A stretch of 47,865 bases of DNA from Shigella phage Henu10. Below the pieces are notes generated by a model. It saw nothing but the letters and a program-made list of their open reading frames with translations. It was not told the DNA's origin and did not search any database. A program made the translations under genes and the position numbers. The stretch lies in sequence record OQ791282. The stretch is one strand, 5' to 3'. This document shows positions 16,814-34,877 of the stretch, in pieces (position 1 is the stretch's first letter; each line of letters starts with the position of its first letter).

Positions 16814-18171
16814 CAGATAGCGAATGATTTGCTATTAGCCAATTCGTTAATTCTATCGTCTTCCTCTTGTATCTGCTGTATCATTTCTTTTGGATTCTTA
16901 ATGCCGAGTTTTTGCATAGCATATTCTTGCGAGTAGAGAGGCTTATTGCCATTAGCTTCCATTAAGAAACGAACGAAATCCGCATCGTTATTGATGATGA
17001 AAGGAGTAATAATTGGCTCTACATCTAAGTCATTATTCTTTAGTTTTACATTGAACATTTGTAGGTGCGACTTGATGATACTTGCTCTTCTTTGAAGGGC
17101 AGGAATATAAATAGCCAGCTTGTCCATTACCTTGAGGTGTGCCGATAAAAACAAAAATTCAGCATTGCTTCCTGCTAACATATTACCCAAACCTTTCATA
17201 TTGTCAAAGCTAATATTTGGTGTAGCGGTAAAGTCGTGAACATCTCGTTCTAAACGGTCGGTTTCTTCCGTGAGGCTTTGGTTAGCTTGGGGTTGATTGG
17301 CAAATTCAGCTTCCGCTCCTTCTTCTAACTGTAGTACACGCCCAGACTTGTCTTGTGATAACTGCCCTGTTACTTTGCCTTTTAGTTTTAAAATAGGAAA
17401 AGAAAAGCGGTCGTTGCTTTCTGCGGTGTTAGAATAAATGTGCTCCAATCTTTCAATGGCAGTTTGCACATCTGCCCACTCTACATTTTCCTGCTTGTAG
17501 TACACTATCGGAATTTTTCCTATTGCGTTAGGAATATCGCTTATTTTTTTCCATTCTTTTTCTTGTTCATATCTGATAATCCTTTCGTCTGTATAAACCT
17601 CAAAAATGGTTTTATTTCCATTCTTGAACTCCCGAGCAAAAGAAATAAGGTTGTCGTTTTCGTCAAATTTCGGATATAAGCTATAAATGTCAGGTGTCAA
17701 AACTTTAACCTTTAGCCTAAATTTTGCTCTAAACCCATAATGTTCGTTAGGTTCATCGGTAAAATACCAAAGCTCGGCACATTCTGTAAATCGTCCCACA
17801 GAGGTTGCGATTTCCCTATCCACAAATTTCATCTTGTTTTTTTCAATAACCTTTAAAAAGGCTTTAAATAGCTCATCGTCCTCGAGGTTATTCGTGTATT
17901 TGATAGGTTCGCCACATAAAAAGGTAGTTGCTATATTGACTATCTTTTTTTGATAGGGAAGACCGATGCGATTAAGGGGTATGGTTACTTTTTGTTTTTG
18001 CTTATTTCCTTTTTCGTCTGTATAGTCTGACACCACCGTTCTATCCGGGTATTTTACCAAATCGGTAAAAATTTTATGCTTTTTTACTTCATATTGGGAG
18101 TTGAACAGCGTAATATCAGGCAAAGTACGCTCCCCTTTATGTTTTTCTATTTCTTGAGCAATGGTATTCAT
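16813..18171 (-). CDS. Portal protein, putative
   Basis: 452 aa immediately downstream of terminase large subunit. Confidence 0.55.
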   Translation of the reverse strand: MNTIAQEIEKHKGERTLPDITLFNSQYEVKKHKIFTDLVKYPDRTVVSDYTDEKGNKQKQKVTIPLNRIGLPYQKKIVNIATTFLCGEPIKYTNNLEDDELFKAFLKVIEKNKMKFVDREIATSVGRFTECAELWYFTDEPNEHYGFRAKFRLKVKVLTPDIYSLYPKFDENDNLISFAREFKNGNKTIFEVYTDERIIRYEQEKEWKKISDIPNAIGKIPIVYYKQENVEWADVQTAIERLEHIYSNTAESNDRFSFPILKLKGKVTGQLSQDKSGRVLQLEEGAEAEFANQPQANQSLTEETDRLERDVHDFTATPNISFDNMKGLGNMLAGSNAEFLFLSAHLKVMDKLAIYIPALQRRASIIKSHLQMFNVKLKNNDLDVEPIITPFIINNDADFVRFLMEANGNKPLYSQEYAMQKLGIKNPKEMIQQIQEEDDRINELANSKSFAI

Positions 18172-18263
18172 AATGATATATTAGTGATAATCACAAAATT
18201 AACTATACCAAAAACCGCTAACAATAGCAATAGGGGAGGATTTGGCAGAAAAACTAAATTTTC

Positions 18264-29837: not shown

Positions 29838-30125
29838 TTATGAATTCACAATGATAGCTTCTACTCCTGCAACAGCTTCTGGTTTTAATTCCAAAAAGTC
29901 TGTGCCTATTTGGTTGGCTTTGTTTTTACATATTTCTGCTAAATCCTTGTTGATTTCGCAGAAAAGAACCTCCTTAGCTCCGTACTCTTTCAGATAATCT
30001 ATAATATTACCTTTTCCTGCACTTGGCTCTAAAATAGTTTTGTTATTTACATCTAACTCCATAAGGTCTAAAACCTCTCTAGGAGTAGGGTAAAAGTCTT
30101 GGTTGAATAGGTTTTGGTATTTCAT
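29838..30125 (-). CDS. SAM-dependent N6-adenine DNA methyltransferase-like N-terminal fragment
   Basis: FYPTPREVLDLM followed by ILEPSAGKGN resembles motif X and motif I of gamma-class amino-methyltransferases; ORF stops (…AIIVNS) before any NPPY-type catalytic motif. Confidence 0.4.
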   Translation of the reverse strand: MKYQNLFNQDFYPTPREVLDLMELDVNNKTILEPSAGKGNIIDYLKEYGAKEVLFCEINKDLAEICKNKANQIGTDFLELKPEAVAGVEAIIVNS

Positions 30126-30234
30126 TTTGCTTTTTTATTAGGATTATTTCTTCTCTTGGGCTTTTGCTCTAGGCTTTGCCCTCTTTTCAGAAAGACCACA
30201 GGTCTATTGAGTTTCTTGGCTTCTTCTAATACCT

Positions 30235-30558
30235 CTAAGGCTTTTCTTCGTTGCTCCTTGCTTCGTTGGAGTGTAATTCCTTCCATTCTTTGGTGTCTTT
30301 TATGGTTAGTATTTCTTTTGGGAATTTCTTTTGTTTTTCAAGCTCTACAAAGTTTTTCAGTTCTTCGCTAAAAACTGTTTTCTTTTTAGCTAACTCGGCA
30401 ATCATTTTGAGTGGGAGGGAGGGGGCTTTAACCTTGCAATCTCTGCTCTCAGTTGTATATTTTCTATCGAAAGCCGTTTTATCATCGTGAATAAGTCTTT
30501 GGTTTGGTAATTCACTTGTTCTGATATTTGCTGTATTTGCTGTATTCCTTTGTACCAT
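30235..30558 (-). CDS. Hypothetical protein (overlaps 30402..30803 in another frame)
   Basis: ORF track only. Confidence 0.25.
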   Translation of the reverse strand: MVQRNTANTANIRTSELPNQRLIHDDKTAFDRKYTTESRDCKVKAPSLPLKMIAELAKKKTVFSEELKNFVELEKQKKFPKEILTIKDTKEWKELHSNEARSNEEKP

Positions 30559-30803
30559 TTTGTTTTTTTTAGTTTTTCTAATCCTTTAAGACCTTCTTCT
30601 GGACTTAAAGGGTGTTTTTGTAACACTTTCAAATCACATTCAGAGAGGTATTTATGAGACCAATCTGTAATGAATCTTATTTTATCACTCATCAACTTCT
30701 GATAATGAACATCTGTTACACTTTCTGTTTTTGCGTTGGCGTCCATTACAAAGTTTATGAACGCTTCTTTCACTTCGTCAGAAAGGCATCTCGTCTGTTT
30801 CAT
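30402..30803 (-). CDS. Hypothetical protein
   Basis: 133-aa ORF immediately downstream of helicase gene. Confidence 0.35.
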   Translation of the reverse strand: MKQTRCLSDEVKEAFINFVMDANAKTESVTDVHYQKLMSDKIRFITDWSHKYLSECDLKVLQKHPLSPEEGLKGLEKLKKTKWYKGIQQIQQISEQVNYQTKDLFTMIKRLSIENIQLRAEIARLKPPPSHSK

Positions 30804-31833
30804 AATTTATTGTATTAAATGCTTCACTTGGAGTGGTTCTAAATTCTTCTATTTTAAACTCTTGATTGGGTCTTCTGTCCTTGAACTTTGTGCATTGTGC
30901 AAACTGCACTTTGTCGTCAAACATCTCATAATATCGTCTGCTTCTCCAATCGTAGTAAATGGAGTAAATCCCCCATTTAGCAACCCCTTCAGGCTTAATT
31001 TTCAGGATATGTATATTTGTCTGATTTTCGGCTACATACTCCTCGTCTCCCTCTGGGTTTTCGTTTGGCTCTGGTCTATGGACTAAAATTTGCAACATCG
31101 CTTTTCTGTTGTTATTTTTTCCTCCATAGAACTCGTCAGCTAAAGCTGTGAGTTTTATTCTCTTTCCGCTTTTGGTTGTTACTTTAGCCGTCTCCGCCAC
31201 ATGGTTCACTATGATGTCGAACCTGTTATTTTCCTCTGCTTCTAAATTTATTCTGTTCAATACTCTAAGCACCTCACTCGCTTTAGGCTCAAAGTCGTCT
31301 ATATCGTAAATGGGGTCTATCACAAGGCAGTCAAACTTTATCCCATAATTAGCCTCCGCCATTGCTAACTCTTTGTAGATGTTATCTAGCTTCTGATAGG
31401 AGGTATCTTTTCTATCTTGCTTGAAAATATACAAGTGTCTTAAAATAAACTCTTCTGCCTCTGCTACTTCCTCATCTGTCATAGCGTACTTGTTGGGCTT
31501 TCCATCTGGTCTGACTTTAGTGTATGGCTTACCTTGATACATTCCGCAAAACTGCGTGAAAACTTTCTCTACATCTCCGCTTTCTGTGGTAAATAAAGCC
31601 ACTTTGAAATGGTGCTTTTCAATAAGCTGCATTACCATTTCGTTAGTTACTTGTGATTTACCGTGATTGGGTTCGCCACCTATTAGCAAAGTACATTTCC
31701 TGCTTCCCATTAACCATTTTCCATTGTTAAAGTCATTCCAAGTTTCAAACGAAAAATAGACTGGGTCTATCTCTCCCTTTGTGCGGAGTTTTCGCATCTG
31801 TGAATGAACCGAAGCTAAGTCTATAAACGCCAT
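30778..31833 (-). CDS. DnaB-like / RecA-fold replicative ATPase-helicase
   Basis: Walker A LLIGGEPNHGKSQ and Walker B FDCLVIDPIYDIDD. Confidence 0.6.
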   Translation of the reverse strand: MAFIDLASVHSQMRKLRTKGEIDPVYFSFETWNDFNNGKWLMGSRKCTLLIGGEPNHGKSQVTNEMVMQLIEKHHFKVALFTTESGDVEKVFTQFCGMYQGKPYTKVRPDGKPNKYAMTDEEVAEAEEFILRHLYIFKQDRKDTSYQKLDNIYKELAMAEANYGIKFDCLVIDPIYDIDDFEPKASEVLRVLNRINLEAEENNRFDIIVNHVAETAKVTTKSGKRIKLTALADEFYGGKNNNRKAMLQILVHRPEPNENPEGDEEYVAENQTNIHILKIKPEGVAKWGIYSIYYDWRSRRYYEMFDDKVQFAQCTKFKDRRPNQEFKIEEFRTTPSEAFNTINYETDEMPF

Positions 31834-31845
31834 AATTCTAATTTT

Positions 31846-32622
31846 TTAAACGCTCCAAATTCCGTAAGTCTTCTTCTTTTCTGTGGCTTTTTGAGAGGTT
31901 GTATTTTTGTACTTGTCTAGGGTTACGGGACGGCTAAAAAATTCAGGTGTTAGGTATTTATAGCCTTGTTCCATATGGTATTTGTCCTTTACCGCATTTT
32001 CGATAGCCTCCAGTATATCCTCTTTTGTGTAGCCTTCTTTCAATCTAGCCTTGTACTTTCTCTTTATTTGGTCGTTTATCGTTTTAAACTTGCGTTTTGT
32101 TTTGTCGCTTATGAAGTTTAATAGCTTTTCAAAGTCTATATCGTTATTGGGCTTCGCTTTTCCCTCTTCTTCCAAATCCGAAAGAGACCCTTTTGGTTCT
32201 TTTTCTAAAAGAACATTTAGTTTAGTTTTATTTAGTTTATTGTTAGTATCAGAAACTGTATCAAGAACCGTATCAGAAACCGTGTCAATATCTGTATCAG
32301 AAACTGTATCAAGAACCGTGTCAGCTGTTGATACAGTTGGAAAAACATATTTAGTTTGTCCGTCTATTCCCTTGCTTCTTTTTTGCGGTGTTTTAAAGTC
32401 AATAAGTCCTAATTGCATCAATCTATTTCTAGCATCTCTAACAGTATTAACTGACATTCCAAGTGCGATACTTAAATGTCTGTCGGAATGCCCAAAGGGT
32501 TGCTTCCAGCCCAACGAATTACAAGTATGCAACAGATAGAAGTATAATCTTGTGTCGTTAGGGCTGATGCAACGCTCTAAGTTGCATTGCCAAAATTTGT
32601 TTATGAGAACTATATAATTCAT
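31846..32622 (-). CDS. Replication initiation protein (N-terminal HTH, repeat linker, conserved phage C-terminal domain)
   Basis: Peptide repeats DTVLDTVSDTDIDTVSDTVLDTVSDT encoded by iteron-like DNA repeats; C-terminal region resembles conserved phage replication-protein C-terminal domains. Confidence 0.5.
   Translation of the reverse strand: MNYIVLINKFWQCNLERCISPNDTRLYFYLLHTCNSLGWKQPFGHSDRHLSIALGMSVNTVRDARNRLMQLGLIDFKTPQKRSKGIDGQTKYVFPTVSTADTVLDTVSDTDIDTVSDTVLDTVSDTNNKLNKTKLNVLLEKEPKGSLSDLEEEGKAKPNNDIDFEKLLNFISDKTKRKFKTINDQIKRKYKARLKEGYTKEDILEAIENAVKDKYHMEQGYKYLTPEFFSRPVTLDKYKNTTSQKATEKKKTYGIWSV
32246..32336. repeat. Iteron-like direct repeats (putative origin) inside replication gene
   Basis: GTATCAGAAACTGTATCAAGAACCGT at 32246..32271 and 32294..32319, plus further GTATCA-type units and an inverted TGATAC. 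Confidence 0.5.
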
Positions 32623-32645
32623 ATTTTTTTATTTCCTATCGTGGC

Positions 32646-32837
32646 TTAAAGTACCTTTACCTTTCCATTTTTTTCTTTATACTTAACTTCTGTATTTATT
32701 ATCTCGTACTTCCCATTTGGCAGTCTATTGACCGCTCTTATCTTAGCGGTGAGGGTGTTTTTCTTTTTCTTTTTTGAAATGAGTACCATTTGTTTTTTCT
32801 TTTGCTTCTCTGATTGCCTCTGTGATATTTTTCGCAT
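32646..32837 (-). CDS. Hypothetical basic protein
   Basis: 63-aa ORF. Confidence 0.3.
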   Translation of the reverse strand: MRKISQRQSEKQKKKQMVLISKKKKKNTLTAKIRAVNRLPNGKYEIINTEVKYKEKNGKVKVL

Positions 32838-32925
32838 CTAGGTAAATGGTCCTCTCGCTATTCCAAATGAAAAAAGTGGTACCCATTTTACCTAGATTAA
32901 AATTACTCCCTTCTATTTTCATTAG

Positions 32926-33222
32926 TTAGAAAGGCAAATCGTCGTCGTCCTGAAAATCATCGGCATTTGCTTCCTGTATTTTAGGTGTTGATTTTCTTAG
33001 ATTTCCGATGAATACAGATTTTATATTATCCTTATGATATTCTTCTTTTAATGGAGAGGATATAGAACCGTCATTTTCGTATTTGTCAGGTTCATCATTG
33101 ATATATACATTGACATTGATATATCGTGTTCCGTTTTCGTGTTTAAAAGTTTTTAGTTTACCTGATTTAAGATTTTCTAATAGTTTGTCGTAGTTAATAC
33201 TACCGTAAAATGATTGTACCAT
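32926..33222 (-). CDS. Small protein with SSB-type acidic C-terminal tail (DDDDLPF)
   Basis: C-terminus ...DDFQDDDDLPF resembles the SSB C-terminal interaction tip (E. coli SSB ends DDDIPF). Confidence 0.4.
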   Translation of the reverse strand: MVQSFYGSINYDKLLENLKSGKLKTFKHENGTRYINVNVYINDEPDKYENDGSISSPLKEEYHKDNIKSVFIGNLRKSTPKIQEANADDFQDDDDLPF

Positions 33223-33246
33223 TGGTTTTTATATTTTTAAAAATTA

Positions 33247-34005
33247 TTATTCAATTACTAAATAGCCTTCTCTTTCGTTTTTATAAATGAGACCTTTCCA
33301 CGCTAATAGATTGCTCTTGTCTTTAAATCTTGTAATTCTATGGTCGTTCATTGCTAAATCCATATACTCTACATCTGTAATTAAAGGTGCTTCTTCTAAG
33401 TGCGATTTTATTGTGTCTCTCATCTCAAAAAAGGTTTTTGCTCGTTCCTTAATCTCTGTTTGAAATTCTATATCTGCATCAAATTCTTTGATATGGTATC
33501 TTTGGTCTAATGGAATATCAAACTCTATTTTGTTGCCCCATTCGTCCATAACATTAGAGGTAAGGTAATAGACTAAATACCCTTTGTTAAATCCCGTCGC
33601 TAACATTTGCATCTGGACTTGTGCTAAGTAGTAGGCAGGTACTTTATCAATATTTTGTTTAAAAGTGTATATAGTGTATGGACATTTTATATCCATACAA
33701 TAATTGTCTATGGGGTTAATTACATCAGGAGTAGCCCATAATCCTTTGTCTATTTCAAAACTAACATCTGACTGATAAACAGTATTTTGAAAATTAGGCT
33801 GTATAATTACATTATAGGCTTCTTCTTCATTAAAAATGCCGTGTTGCATTGCTGTTGTTGTAAGATGTTTTTTTTGACCTAAAATCAACTCTAAGGCTTT
33901 TTCGTAAGCAAGGGTTTGAGCGGTCTTTGCCTTTAGCCCTTGTTGGGTAAATAACGCTCCAATTTCAGAAGCTCCAAGTCCTCCAAGTTTGTTTATTTCT
34001 TCCAT
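33247..34005 (-). CDS. YqaJ-like recombination exonuclease
   Basis: N-terminal GGLGASEIGALF motif; paired with ERF gene upstream. Confidence 0.6.
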   Translation of the reverse strand: MEEINKLGGLGASEIGALFTQQGLKAKTAQTLAYEKALELILGQKKHLTTTAMQHGIFNEEEAYNVIIQPNFQNTVYQSDVSFEIDKGLWATPDVINPIDNYCMDIKCPYTIYTFKQNIDKVPAYYLAQVQMQMLATGFNKGYLVYYLTSNVMDEWGNKIEFDIPLDQRYHIKEFDADIEFQTEIKERAKTFFEMRDTIKSHLEEAPLITDVEYMDLAMNDHRITRFKDKSNLLAWKGLIYKNEREGYLVIE

Positions 34006-34577
34006 TAGTTAATTCCTAATTTTTTGAGTTCAGCTTCTGTTTCTTTGGATACCTTGTATTTTTTTCTAATATCGCTAACTGTAAATGTTTTACCTTCGTC
34101 TATGCTTGATACTAATTTAGCCCATTGTTCTGTGTCTTTATTTAGCCACATTGCAGGCTCATTTGCTTTTTGTATCTTGGGTTTCGTGTCTAATACTTGC
34201 TTGTGTTCGTTAGTGTCAGCGTCTTTAGTATCATCTATTAAAAACAAACCATTTAAAGCATATTTGCGTGCATAAGATGACGACGCACCGAATGTTTGTG
34301 ATATATCCATTCCTTTTTTTGTGGGGTCAATACCAGCTTGAGCTTTTACGGATATTTGTGTGTTTTTATCACTAATTGTCGCTGTTGCCTCGCAATAAAT
34401 AATATCACCTATTTGCTTTATTTCATCGGTAATAACTAATGTGCAATCGTGTTTTAGTAATATTGGCTTTAAAGCCTCCAATATATCCTCACAACTTCTG
34501 TACTTGTATTTACCAAAGCTATTATATTGCCCTTTTGGGGCTTTTAGCTCTGATTGTATTTTGATGAGTTTTTCCAT
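34005..34577 (-). CDS. ERF-family single-strand annealing protein
   Basis: N-terminal region FGKYKYRSCEDILEALKP typical of ERF. Confidence 0.6.
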   Translation of the reverse strand: MEKLIKIQSELKAPKGQYNSFGKYKYRSCEDILEALKPILLKHDCTLVITDEIKQIGDIIYCEATATISDKNTQISVKAQAGIDPTKKGMDISQTFGASSSYARKYALNGLFLIDDTKDADTNEHKQVLDTKPKIQKANEPAMWLNKDTEQWAKLVSSIDEGKTFTVSDIRKKYKVSKETEAELKKLGIN

Positions 34578-34691
34578 TTTGTATATTTTTAATTGTTGAT
34601 TTTGTTTCTTGGGGGTTACGAAAAAATGCCGTAACCTTTCTTAACAGGCAATAGCCATAGGTAGTAACCTATTCGTTTTGCCTTTTGGGTT

Positions 34692-34877
34692 TTATATTGT
34701 TTTATCCTCGCTTTCATCTCTGAAAAAGTTTGTGATTTCTTGCTCTTTTACATTCATAAAAAGGCTTATCAATAAAAGCCCTACCGCAGACATCAAAGCC
34801 ATTGTATCGTGGCTTTCTGATACGGCGAAAGCGTAAATAATCGCCGTTACTGTTGTTATTTTTGATAGTGTTTTCAT
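34692..34877 (-). CDS. Small membrane protein
   Basis: 61 aa with two hydrophobic segments. Confidence 0.3.
   Translation of the reverse strand: MKTLSKITTVTAIIYAFAVSESHDTMALMSAVGLLLISLFMNVKEQEITNFFRDESEDKTI

Follow-up and report, generated by a model that had tools for sequence, protein, structure and literature searches.

The compatibility of Red-beta and RecT follows the last seven residues of the host SSB, the protein that binds single-stranded DNA (PMC13490951), and phage HK620 encodes a non-canonical SSB of its own (HkaK/Abc1, DUF669) beside the annealase Sak4 (PMC5928155). The HK620 protein's final six residues (NDYPPF) are needed both for the binding of Sak4 to SSB-coated single-stranded DNA (ssDNA) and for the stimulation of annealing (PMC5928155). 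In addition, a published phage SSB has matches to both the SSB and the DUF3127 domain models (PMC8004638). Here we examine a small gene in a 47,865-nucleotide (nt) stretch of DNA from Shigella phage Henu10 (sequence record OQ791282), hereafter called the window, whose 98-amino acid (aa) product ends in a tip of the type carried by bacterial SSBs and is encoded next to an annealase and an exonuclease. We conclude that this protein is probably a phage SSB analogue with a core other than the oligonucleotide/oligosaccharide-binding (OB) fold, and the third member of an early-expressed recombination cassette composed of annealase, exonuclease and SSB-like protein.

The gene was first singled out from the sequence of the window alone, in what we will call the original prediction. 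The open reading frame (ORF) had been placed correctly, both in its coordinates and in its sequence, and we add here that it lies on the minus strand:

32926..33222, minus strand: coding sequence of the 98-aa protein, including the stop codon; an ORF from ATG to TAA, and a member of PHROG 24909

Its translation is MVQSFYGSINYDKLLENLKSGKLKTFKHENGTRYINVNVYINDEPDKYENDGSISSPLKEEYHKDNIKSVFIGNLRKSTPKIQEANADDFQDDDDLPF, and the C-terminal stretch is ANADDFQDDDDLPF, with the last residues ...DDFQDDDDLPF. By its sequence, the window belongs to a Riemerella anatipestifer siphophage, the region being 100% identical to that of ten such phages, including vB_RanS_CRP34, PT03 and PT15 (for CRP34, locus L002, over a tested stretch of 3 kilobases).

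The 98-aa protein belongs to a large family. A single-sequence search retrieved 13 close relatives and a profile search 467 proteins, and an exhaustive hidden Markov model (HMM) search of 1.84 billion representatives yielded 281 clusters at 50% identity. Almost all members have 92-110 residues. They are borne by prophages in Riemerella, Capnocytophaga, Chryseobacterium, Faecalibacter and Chishuiella genomes and by phages of Riemerella, Polaribacter, Tenacibaculum and Flavobacterium, and gp31 of Marinomonas phage P12026, which infects a gamma-proteobacterium, is a divergent member (27.8 bits with the family HMM). PHROG 24909, a cluster of unknown function, matches the 98-aa protein with E 2e-46, aligning residues 4-98 with positions 1-104 of a 104-position profile. 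Pfam and NCBIfam scans of the 98-aa protein matched no model and gave no named family, and for 84 members Pfam gave no more than weak matches here and there, such as Spore_III_AF in 12 of them (best E 1e-3), all of which we treated as noise. The models for SSB (PF00436) and DUF3127 (PF11325) gave zero matches among these 84 members even at E<=1, and DUF669 matched neither the 98-aa protein nor the 84 members in the Pfam scan. We found no paper on the family or on the Riemerella phage gene. The family is real, widespread and undescribed. The original prediction had considered a single protein, and its statements on the tail and the neighboring genes are borne out by the data that follow; the large family and an exchangeable three-gene cassette lay beyond its sight.

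Three elements characterize a bacterial SSB, namely an OB-fold domain recognizable by profile or structure, a disordered linker of variable sequence, and an acidic tip of the form D-D-D-[IL]-P-F. The window protein carries such a tip (DDDDLPF), and the family has such a linker, as judged from unconserved columns, variable length and a low predicted local distance difference test (pLDDT) score over the tail. An OB-fold domain was found in the window protein neither by profile nor by structure. Column conservation across 260 member sequences, together with the ends and linkers of 263 members, divides the protein as follows:

32989..33222, minus strand: conserved folded core, aa 1-78, delimited by column conservation and two AlphaFold2 runs
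32947..32988, minus strand: short acidic linker, aa 79-92 (TPKIQEANADDFQD), unconserved in the family
32929..32946, minus strand: SSB C-terminus (SSB-Ct)-type tip, aa 93-98 (DDDLPF), with conserved columns

In the family consensus, numbered as in the window protein, the core is marked by YGSI (6-9), G31, N36, W/Y40, N42-D43, D46, Y48-G49-N50, S53 and Y71-x-G73-N74-x-K76, from which the window protein departs at E49, F71 and R76. An aromatic residue occupies position 40 in 97%, position 48 in 96% and position 71 in 100% of members, and K76 is 97% conserved. Over the linker columns (77-93), the most common residue has a frequency of 0.1-0.4 and gaps are abundant. Family linkers range from about 10 to 100 aa (9-110 aa with the tip included, median 25), and the long ones are composed largely of Q (20%), P (19%), A (14%) and G (10%), as illustrated by member P0188, which reads '...QQAQPAATPWGGQPAQPQQAF...NNDLPF'. 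The tail of gp31 from Marinomonas phage P12026 reads '...QGGGWGQQPPAQQPQPQ...GFDDFDDVPF', and this linker and tip resemble those of Escherichia coli SSB. Charge is divided along the same lines, with cores having a median net charge of +2 and an isoelectric point of 8.7, and linker plus tip a median net charge of -5. This arrangement, in which a low-complexity linker varies between a core and an acidic tip that are both conserved, is the layout of bacterial SSBs.

Conservation returns at the tip, where columns D94, D95, L96, P97 and F98 are 70-94% conserved (70-85% for the two aspartates). A hydrophobic-Pro-aromatic end is kept by 222 of the 263 members, 198 of which place an acidic residue directly before it, and 75 of 120 close members end in DDLPF. 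We rejected a chance acidic tail on the conservation of the tip, and we rated a beta-clamp-binding motif in the tail unlikely, the sequence being off the QL[SD]LF type. Judged from these alignments, the C-terminus is a genuine, selected SSB-Ct-type tip, and the resemblance to SSB tails on which the original prediction was founded extends to the family. DLPF is also the ending of the SSBs from Flavobacterium psychrophilum and Psychroflexus torquis, whose C-terminal domains are short, at 31 and 43 aa, respectively (PMC3991886 Table 1). The tip of the 98-aa protein matches SSBs of the Flavobacteriales, the order of its host, in a comparison made with these two proteins.

Such tips are confined to few proteins. 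In a set of 1324 ORFs, each 50 aa or longer, from the window and 21 loci, ends made of an acidic run plus [LIMVF]-P-[FYW] occur only in this family, in a DUF3127 mini-SSB and in replicative helicases, with a 196-aa protein ending in KLPF at locus L007 as a possible exception to this rule of three protein kinds. We also encountered ends that run one residue past the tip, as DDLPFN or DDLPFW, in 7001-7297 of L026 (gp81 of Flavobacterium phage elemoF) and in members P0024 and P0047. For SSB-Ct binding in E. coli it matters that the carboxylate of the terminal Phe is free, so the extended ends may differ in binding, or they may have been called wrongly.

The original prediction had also described the protein as unlike a canonical OB-fold SSB and had proposed structure prediction as a check. 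AlphaFold2 was run with 84 sequences (pLDDT 79.2, predicted template modeling score (pTM) 0.54) and again with 150 more diverse sequences (pLDDT 84.9, pTM 0.60). Both runs returned one topology, beta(4-9)-alpha(11-20)-beta(25-27)-beta(33-35)-beta(38-41)-beta(52-58)-beta(69-78), with low confidence over the tail that comes after it (pLDDT 63-75 over the last 20 residues in the second run). The OB fold has its helix between strands 3 and 4. When the first model was compared with the PDB by Foldseek, the best match had E 2.9, and 'no known fold' here means no PDB match with a model of moderate confidence; the same model retrieved from BFVD only uncharacterized phage proteins that are themselves family members. 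Family profiles built from 84 and from 150 sequences had no match among PDB sequences, and hhalign comparisons of the family with E. coli SSB and with the DUF3127 protein introduced below aligned the tip only, which in the latter case amounted to the last 16 residues. The models thus support a predicted beta-alpha-beta5 core with no recognizable OB fold, and with PF00436 also unmatched, the difference from canonical SSBs is supported.

Further genomic evidence concerns the genes that accompany the 98-aa gene:

33247..34005, minus strand: gene for a YqaJ-type 5'-3' exonuclease (PF09588 E 2.4e-9; PHROG 149 exonuclease E 2.3e-27)
34005..34577, minus strand: gene for an ERF-family single-strand annealing protein (PF04404 E 1.1e-37; PHROG 155 E 1.6e-44)
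32950..34569, no strand assigned: exchangeable cassette comprising the ERF gene, the YqaJ exonuclease gene and the body of the 98-aa gene, delimited by blastn against phage vB_RanS_GDF21

The proximity to an ERF/YqaJ pair that had been noticed at the outset is confirmed by these domain matches, and both genes lie upstream. The ERF gene precedes the YqaJ gene, its stop codon overlapping the YqaJ start codon, and a gap of 24 nt separates the YqaJ gene from the 98-aa gene downstream on the common strand. In a blastn comparison with the sibling phage GDF21 (L001), the flanks at 30001-32217, 32653-32949 and 34570-34877 are 86-97% identical, and there is no nucleotide similarity across 32950-34569. 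Within the swapped interval, GDF21 carries RecT (PF03837 E 3e-43), a 307-aa exonuclease (PHROG 5715) and a 118-aa DUF3127 protein (WVX90399.1) that ends in EDEEDDLPF. The latter protein matches both PF11325 (E 1.4e-8) and the SSB model PF00436 (E 4.6e-4, profile positions 6-92 of 104), and weakly matches an NCBIfam SSB model as well. The 3' junction of the cassette is an identical 18 nt, GACGATTTGCCTTTCTAA, which codes for DDLPF plus the stop codon in both the 98-aa gene and the GDF21 DUF3127 gene. An annealase, an exonuclease and a small tip-bearing protein have been swapped as a block, and where the window has the 98-aa protein, GDF21 has a small OB-fold SSB relative that ends in the same tip.

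A tip of this kind is carried by a second protein of the same region:

30778..31833, minus strand: SF4/DnaB-like phage helicase of 351 aa (PHROG 5482 E 3e-119; PHROG 239 primase/helicase E 8.8e-23)

This helicase ends in ...NYETDEMPF, with the acidic Pro-Phe tip ETDEMPF encoded at 30781-30801. An x-P-F end after an acidic run is found in 72 of 84 helicase homologues (FPF 38, MPF 17, LPF 9, CPF 6, IPF 1, RPF 1), a typical ending being EDDDDFPF, and the primase-helicases beside family members at L006 6347-9589 and L009 10415-13597 end in NDDNLPF and GSPEVPF. An SSB-Ct-like tip is thus borne by two proteins of these phages, the small one and the replicative helicase. To our knowledge, a conserved tip of this kind has not been described on replicative helicases. 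A parallel is provided by phage T7, in which gp2.5 and the helicase-primase gp4 both use acidic tails ending in Phe, that of gp4 binding the same polymerase patches as gp2.5. The SSB-like tip of the helicase suggests a route by which phages without a polymerase might recruit parts of the host replisome.

The genes that lead from the cassette to the helicase are the following:

32743..32922, minus strand: conserved 59-aa gene (PHROG 30131 E 5.8e-43)
31846..32622, minus strand: replication initiator gene, located after the 59-aa gene

The 59-aa gene starts 4 nt past the stop codon of the 98-aa gene, and the two therefore lie in one transcription unit. It is found downstream of both cassette types, in the window and in GDF21, and lies in the common stretch 32653-32949. 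Within the replication initiator gene, a tandem array at 32246-32324 (period 12/24, 5.5/3.3 copies, consensus GTATCAGAAACT) codes for the DTVSDT repeats of the initiator. This array falls in 32218-32652, which has no homology to GDF21 though both of its flanks do, and it might represent an origin of the iteron type within the initiator gene, like that of lambda O, and might have been swapped together with the N-terminal domain of the initiator.

We made two further observations on the annotated relatives of the window. The 98-aa gene is labeled 'hypothetical protein' in every annotated record but one, the exception being 32802-33095 of MZ995504.1 (phage vB_RanS_PT03), where an identical gene is called 'ERF family protein'. 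From the sequence this looks like an annotation error, because domain scans detect no ERF domain in the 98-aa protein. In the CRP34 genome, a HigB-family toxin gene and an antitoxin-like gene with a helix-turn-helix domain are annotated between the tape-measure and tail genes (17572-18224), and the pair look like cargo inside the structural module.

Gene contexts elsewhere were collected mainly from contigs that encode family members (a close-alignment search gave 4 loci in the genome collection and 5 in the viral collection), and include these arrangements:

Chryseobacterium lathyri prophage (L010): ERF, exoVIII-like exonuclease, NinB/Orf, family member
Metagenome contigs L018 and L019: DUF1351, RecT, 74-aa protein, metallo-beta-lactamase nuclease, 121-aa protein, family member, and further along DUF6291 and AAA_25 helicase
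L020: ERF and, further along, GIY-YIG and family member
Flavobacterium podophage elemoF: family member, Erf, 5'-3' exonuclease
Faecalibacter and R. columbipharyngis prophages: family member directly upstream of DnaG/Toprim primase-helicases of 1060-1085 aa
Capnocytophaga canis prophage: family member about 2.6 kilobases upstream of a DnaG/Toprim primase-helicase
L022, with a long-linker member: family member, DEAD/SNF2 helicase, primase
Polaribacter phage P12002L and L021: family member closing the early region, immediately ahead of the terminase

Family members sit in early replication and recombination modules with varying partner genes. Two of these neighborhoods contain additional genes of note. 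At L010 7146-7616, the exonuclease and the family member are separated by a gene for a NinB/Orf recombination mediator (PHROG 319 E 2.5e-13). The Orf protein of lambda interacts with SSB, and this arrangement fits a tip-based interaction. In addition, a protein of PHROG 15333 (function unknown) comes first in the series of genes running up to the family member at L011 8539-9105 and at L022 3888-4649, and is followed by a 299-aa protein with a weak Cas4/nuclease-like match in L011 and by a 373-aa protein without matches in L022. PHROG 15333 could be an unrecognized annealase family.

No Pfam SSB was recorded among the neighbors of family members, and neither an SSB nor a DNA polymerase is annotated in the complete CRP34 genome. 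Queried with E. coli SSB and the DUF3127 core, phmmer detected no OB-fold SSB among 254 ORF segments of the window, and among 1623 segments from 26 loci it detected only the DUF3127 protein of GDF21, the sole locus without the family.

Taken together, these observations point to the following mechanism. The core of about 78 aa would bind the ssDNA that the YqaJ exonuclease uncovers and that of phage replication forks, and the short acidic linker would leave the C-terminus free. The host-type tip (...DDDDLPF) would then dock proteins that bind the SSB C-terminus, which may include the phage annealase (ERF here, RecT elsewhere) and the host SSB interactome. By analogy with the SSB/annealase systems that have been tested, the docked proteins would in this way be loaded onto the coated DNA.

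Several points weigh against this proposal. Binding of ssDNA by the family core is something that we infer. The core of the window protein has a net charge of 0, and among the most highly conserved positions of the core several hold acidic or polar residues (N42, D43, D46, N50), which is atypical for a DNA-binding face. The members in P12002L and L021 are not located beside recombination genes. Finally, the searches for canonical SSBs used single sequences, so that a very divergent SSB could escape them. The original prediction had offered two roles for the protein, a minimal SSB and a decoy that competes for SSB-interacting host proteins. The minimal SSB is now the better supported, given the SSB layout, the slot shared with DUF3127 and the lack of a co-occurring, detectable canonical SSB. 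We favor an SSB-like role with recruitment over a decoy because distant members have SSB-type linkers, because the gene is exchanged one for one with an OB-fold mini-SSB, and because the helicase carries a tip of its own.

The alternative that survives best is that the protein presents its tip, as an adaptor or decoy, and does not bind DNA. Its core would bind the annealase, the helicase or host SSB, or would oligomerize, and its tail would bridge that partner to host SSB-binding proteins or soak them up, possibly blocking host nucleases and helicases of repair and restart. The core indeed matches no DNA-binding fold and is uncharged in the window, its conserved residues include the acidic loop N-D-E-P-D-x-Y-G-N, and the tip is the only sequence feature in common with SSB. 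Moreover, temperate phages can use host SSB, and a phage without its own is not unusual. However, a decoy has no obvious need of the long Q/P/G/A-rich linkers seen in distant members, and in GDF21 the gene is exchanged one for one with an OB-fold SSB relative. The helicase has a similar tip, so a competitor would also act against the replication proteins of the phage itself, and a tip on the helicase accords better with recruitment than with inhibition. In addition, the near-invariant aromatic residues at 40, 48 and 71 and the conserved K76 are compatible with base stacking. We therefore consider an adaptor or decoy unlikely, though it is the alternative that we take most seriously.

Much less probable is a very divergent OB fold, in which the family would be truly homologous to SSB and DUF3127 and its core would have been mis-modeled by AlphaFold. 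The genomic slot, the size class and the tip are as in DUF3127, and the first model is of moderate confidence only (pLDDT 79, pTM 0.54). Nevertheless, two independent alignments agree on beta-alpha-beta5, the second at pLDDT 84.9, and the helix of an OB fold sits elsewhere. The failure of PF00436 and PF11325 to match any of 84 members at E<=1, and the profile comparisons with DUF3127 and E. coli SSB that align nothing but the tip, likewise argue against such homology.

The least probable explanation, that LPF serves mainly as a degradation tag controlling the level of the protein, draws on the SsbA of some Streptococcus mutans strains, whose C-terminal LPF is sufficient for ClpXP-dependent degradation in strain UA159, but this recognition is strain-dependent and absent in E. 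coli and other streptococci (PMC5143411), the conserved D94 and D95 (70-85%) belong to the SSB-Ct interaction motif rather than to a three-residue degron, and the presence of the tip on helicases and DUF3127 better fits a shared docking function.

Returning to the SSB analogue that we favor, we put forward a broader proposal more tentatively, as one that may well prove incorrect. The beta-alpha-beta5 core might be an unrecognized ssDNA-binding fold that has converged on the SSB design, and together with the tip-bearing helicases and primase-helicases it might serve a 'plug' strategy that wires the recombination and replication proteins of Flavobacteriia phages, and of at least one gamma-proteobacterial phage, into the host SSB network. 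If the core does bind ssDNA, the family would represent a new structural class of SSB, in which a non-OB scaffold came, by evolution or reassembly, to carry the core-linker-tip design. There is also a practical side to this possibility. Recombineering often fails outside model bacteria because annealase and host SSB tip have to fit each other (PMC13490951, PMC5928155). As a compact, cognate SSB-like partner for ERF and RecT of Flavobacteriia phages, such a protein is an obvious candidate to improve recombineering in Riemerella, Flavobacterium, Chryseobacterium and their relatives, which are hard to engineer.

How, then, does the 98-aa family compare with the systems already described? With OB-fold SSBs (PF00436), such as those of E. 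coli and F. psychrophilum, it has in common a folded N-terminal domain, a variable disordered linker and an acidic D-D-[LI]-P-F tip, as well as placement in phage replication and recombination modules. In contrast, its core measures about 78 aa rather than about 105-115 aa, is predicted to be beta-alpha-beta5, and matches neither PF00436 nor a solved OB structure. The gp2.5 protein of T7 likewise has an acidic C-terminal tail whose essential terminal Phe docks on a replication partner, the polymerase. However, gp2.5 has an OB fold, is 232 aa long and binds the polymerase of its own phage, whereas the tip of the 98-aa protein copies that of host SSB, and no phage DNA polymerase is annotated in CRP34, the genome identical to the window.

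The DUF3127 protein of GDF21 is similar in size class (118 versus 98 aa), in its DDLPF tip, and in its slot after the annealase and exonuclease and before the 59-aa gene and the replication genes, and the two are mutually exclusive in the loci that we examined. They differ in that DUF3127 is detectably related to the OB domain of SSB, whereas the 98-aa family is detectably related to neither. The HK620 SSB differs in being a 21 kDa distant SSB homologue whose binding to ssDNA has been demonstrated, whereas the 98-aa family is known from sequence and has no DUF669 match. It is nonetheless a non-canonical phage SSB that is encoded next to an annealase and ends in a host-like, PF-terminated hexapeptide, and as such it constitutes the closest functional precedent for the mechanism that we propose.

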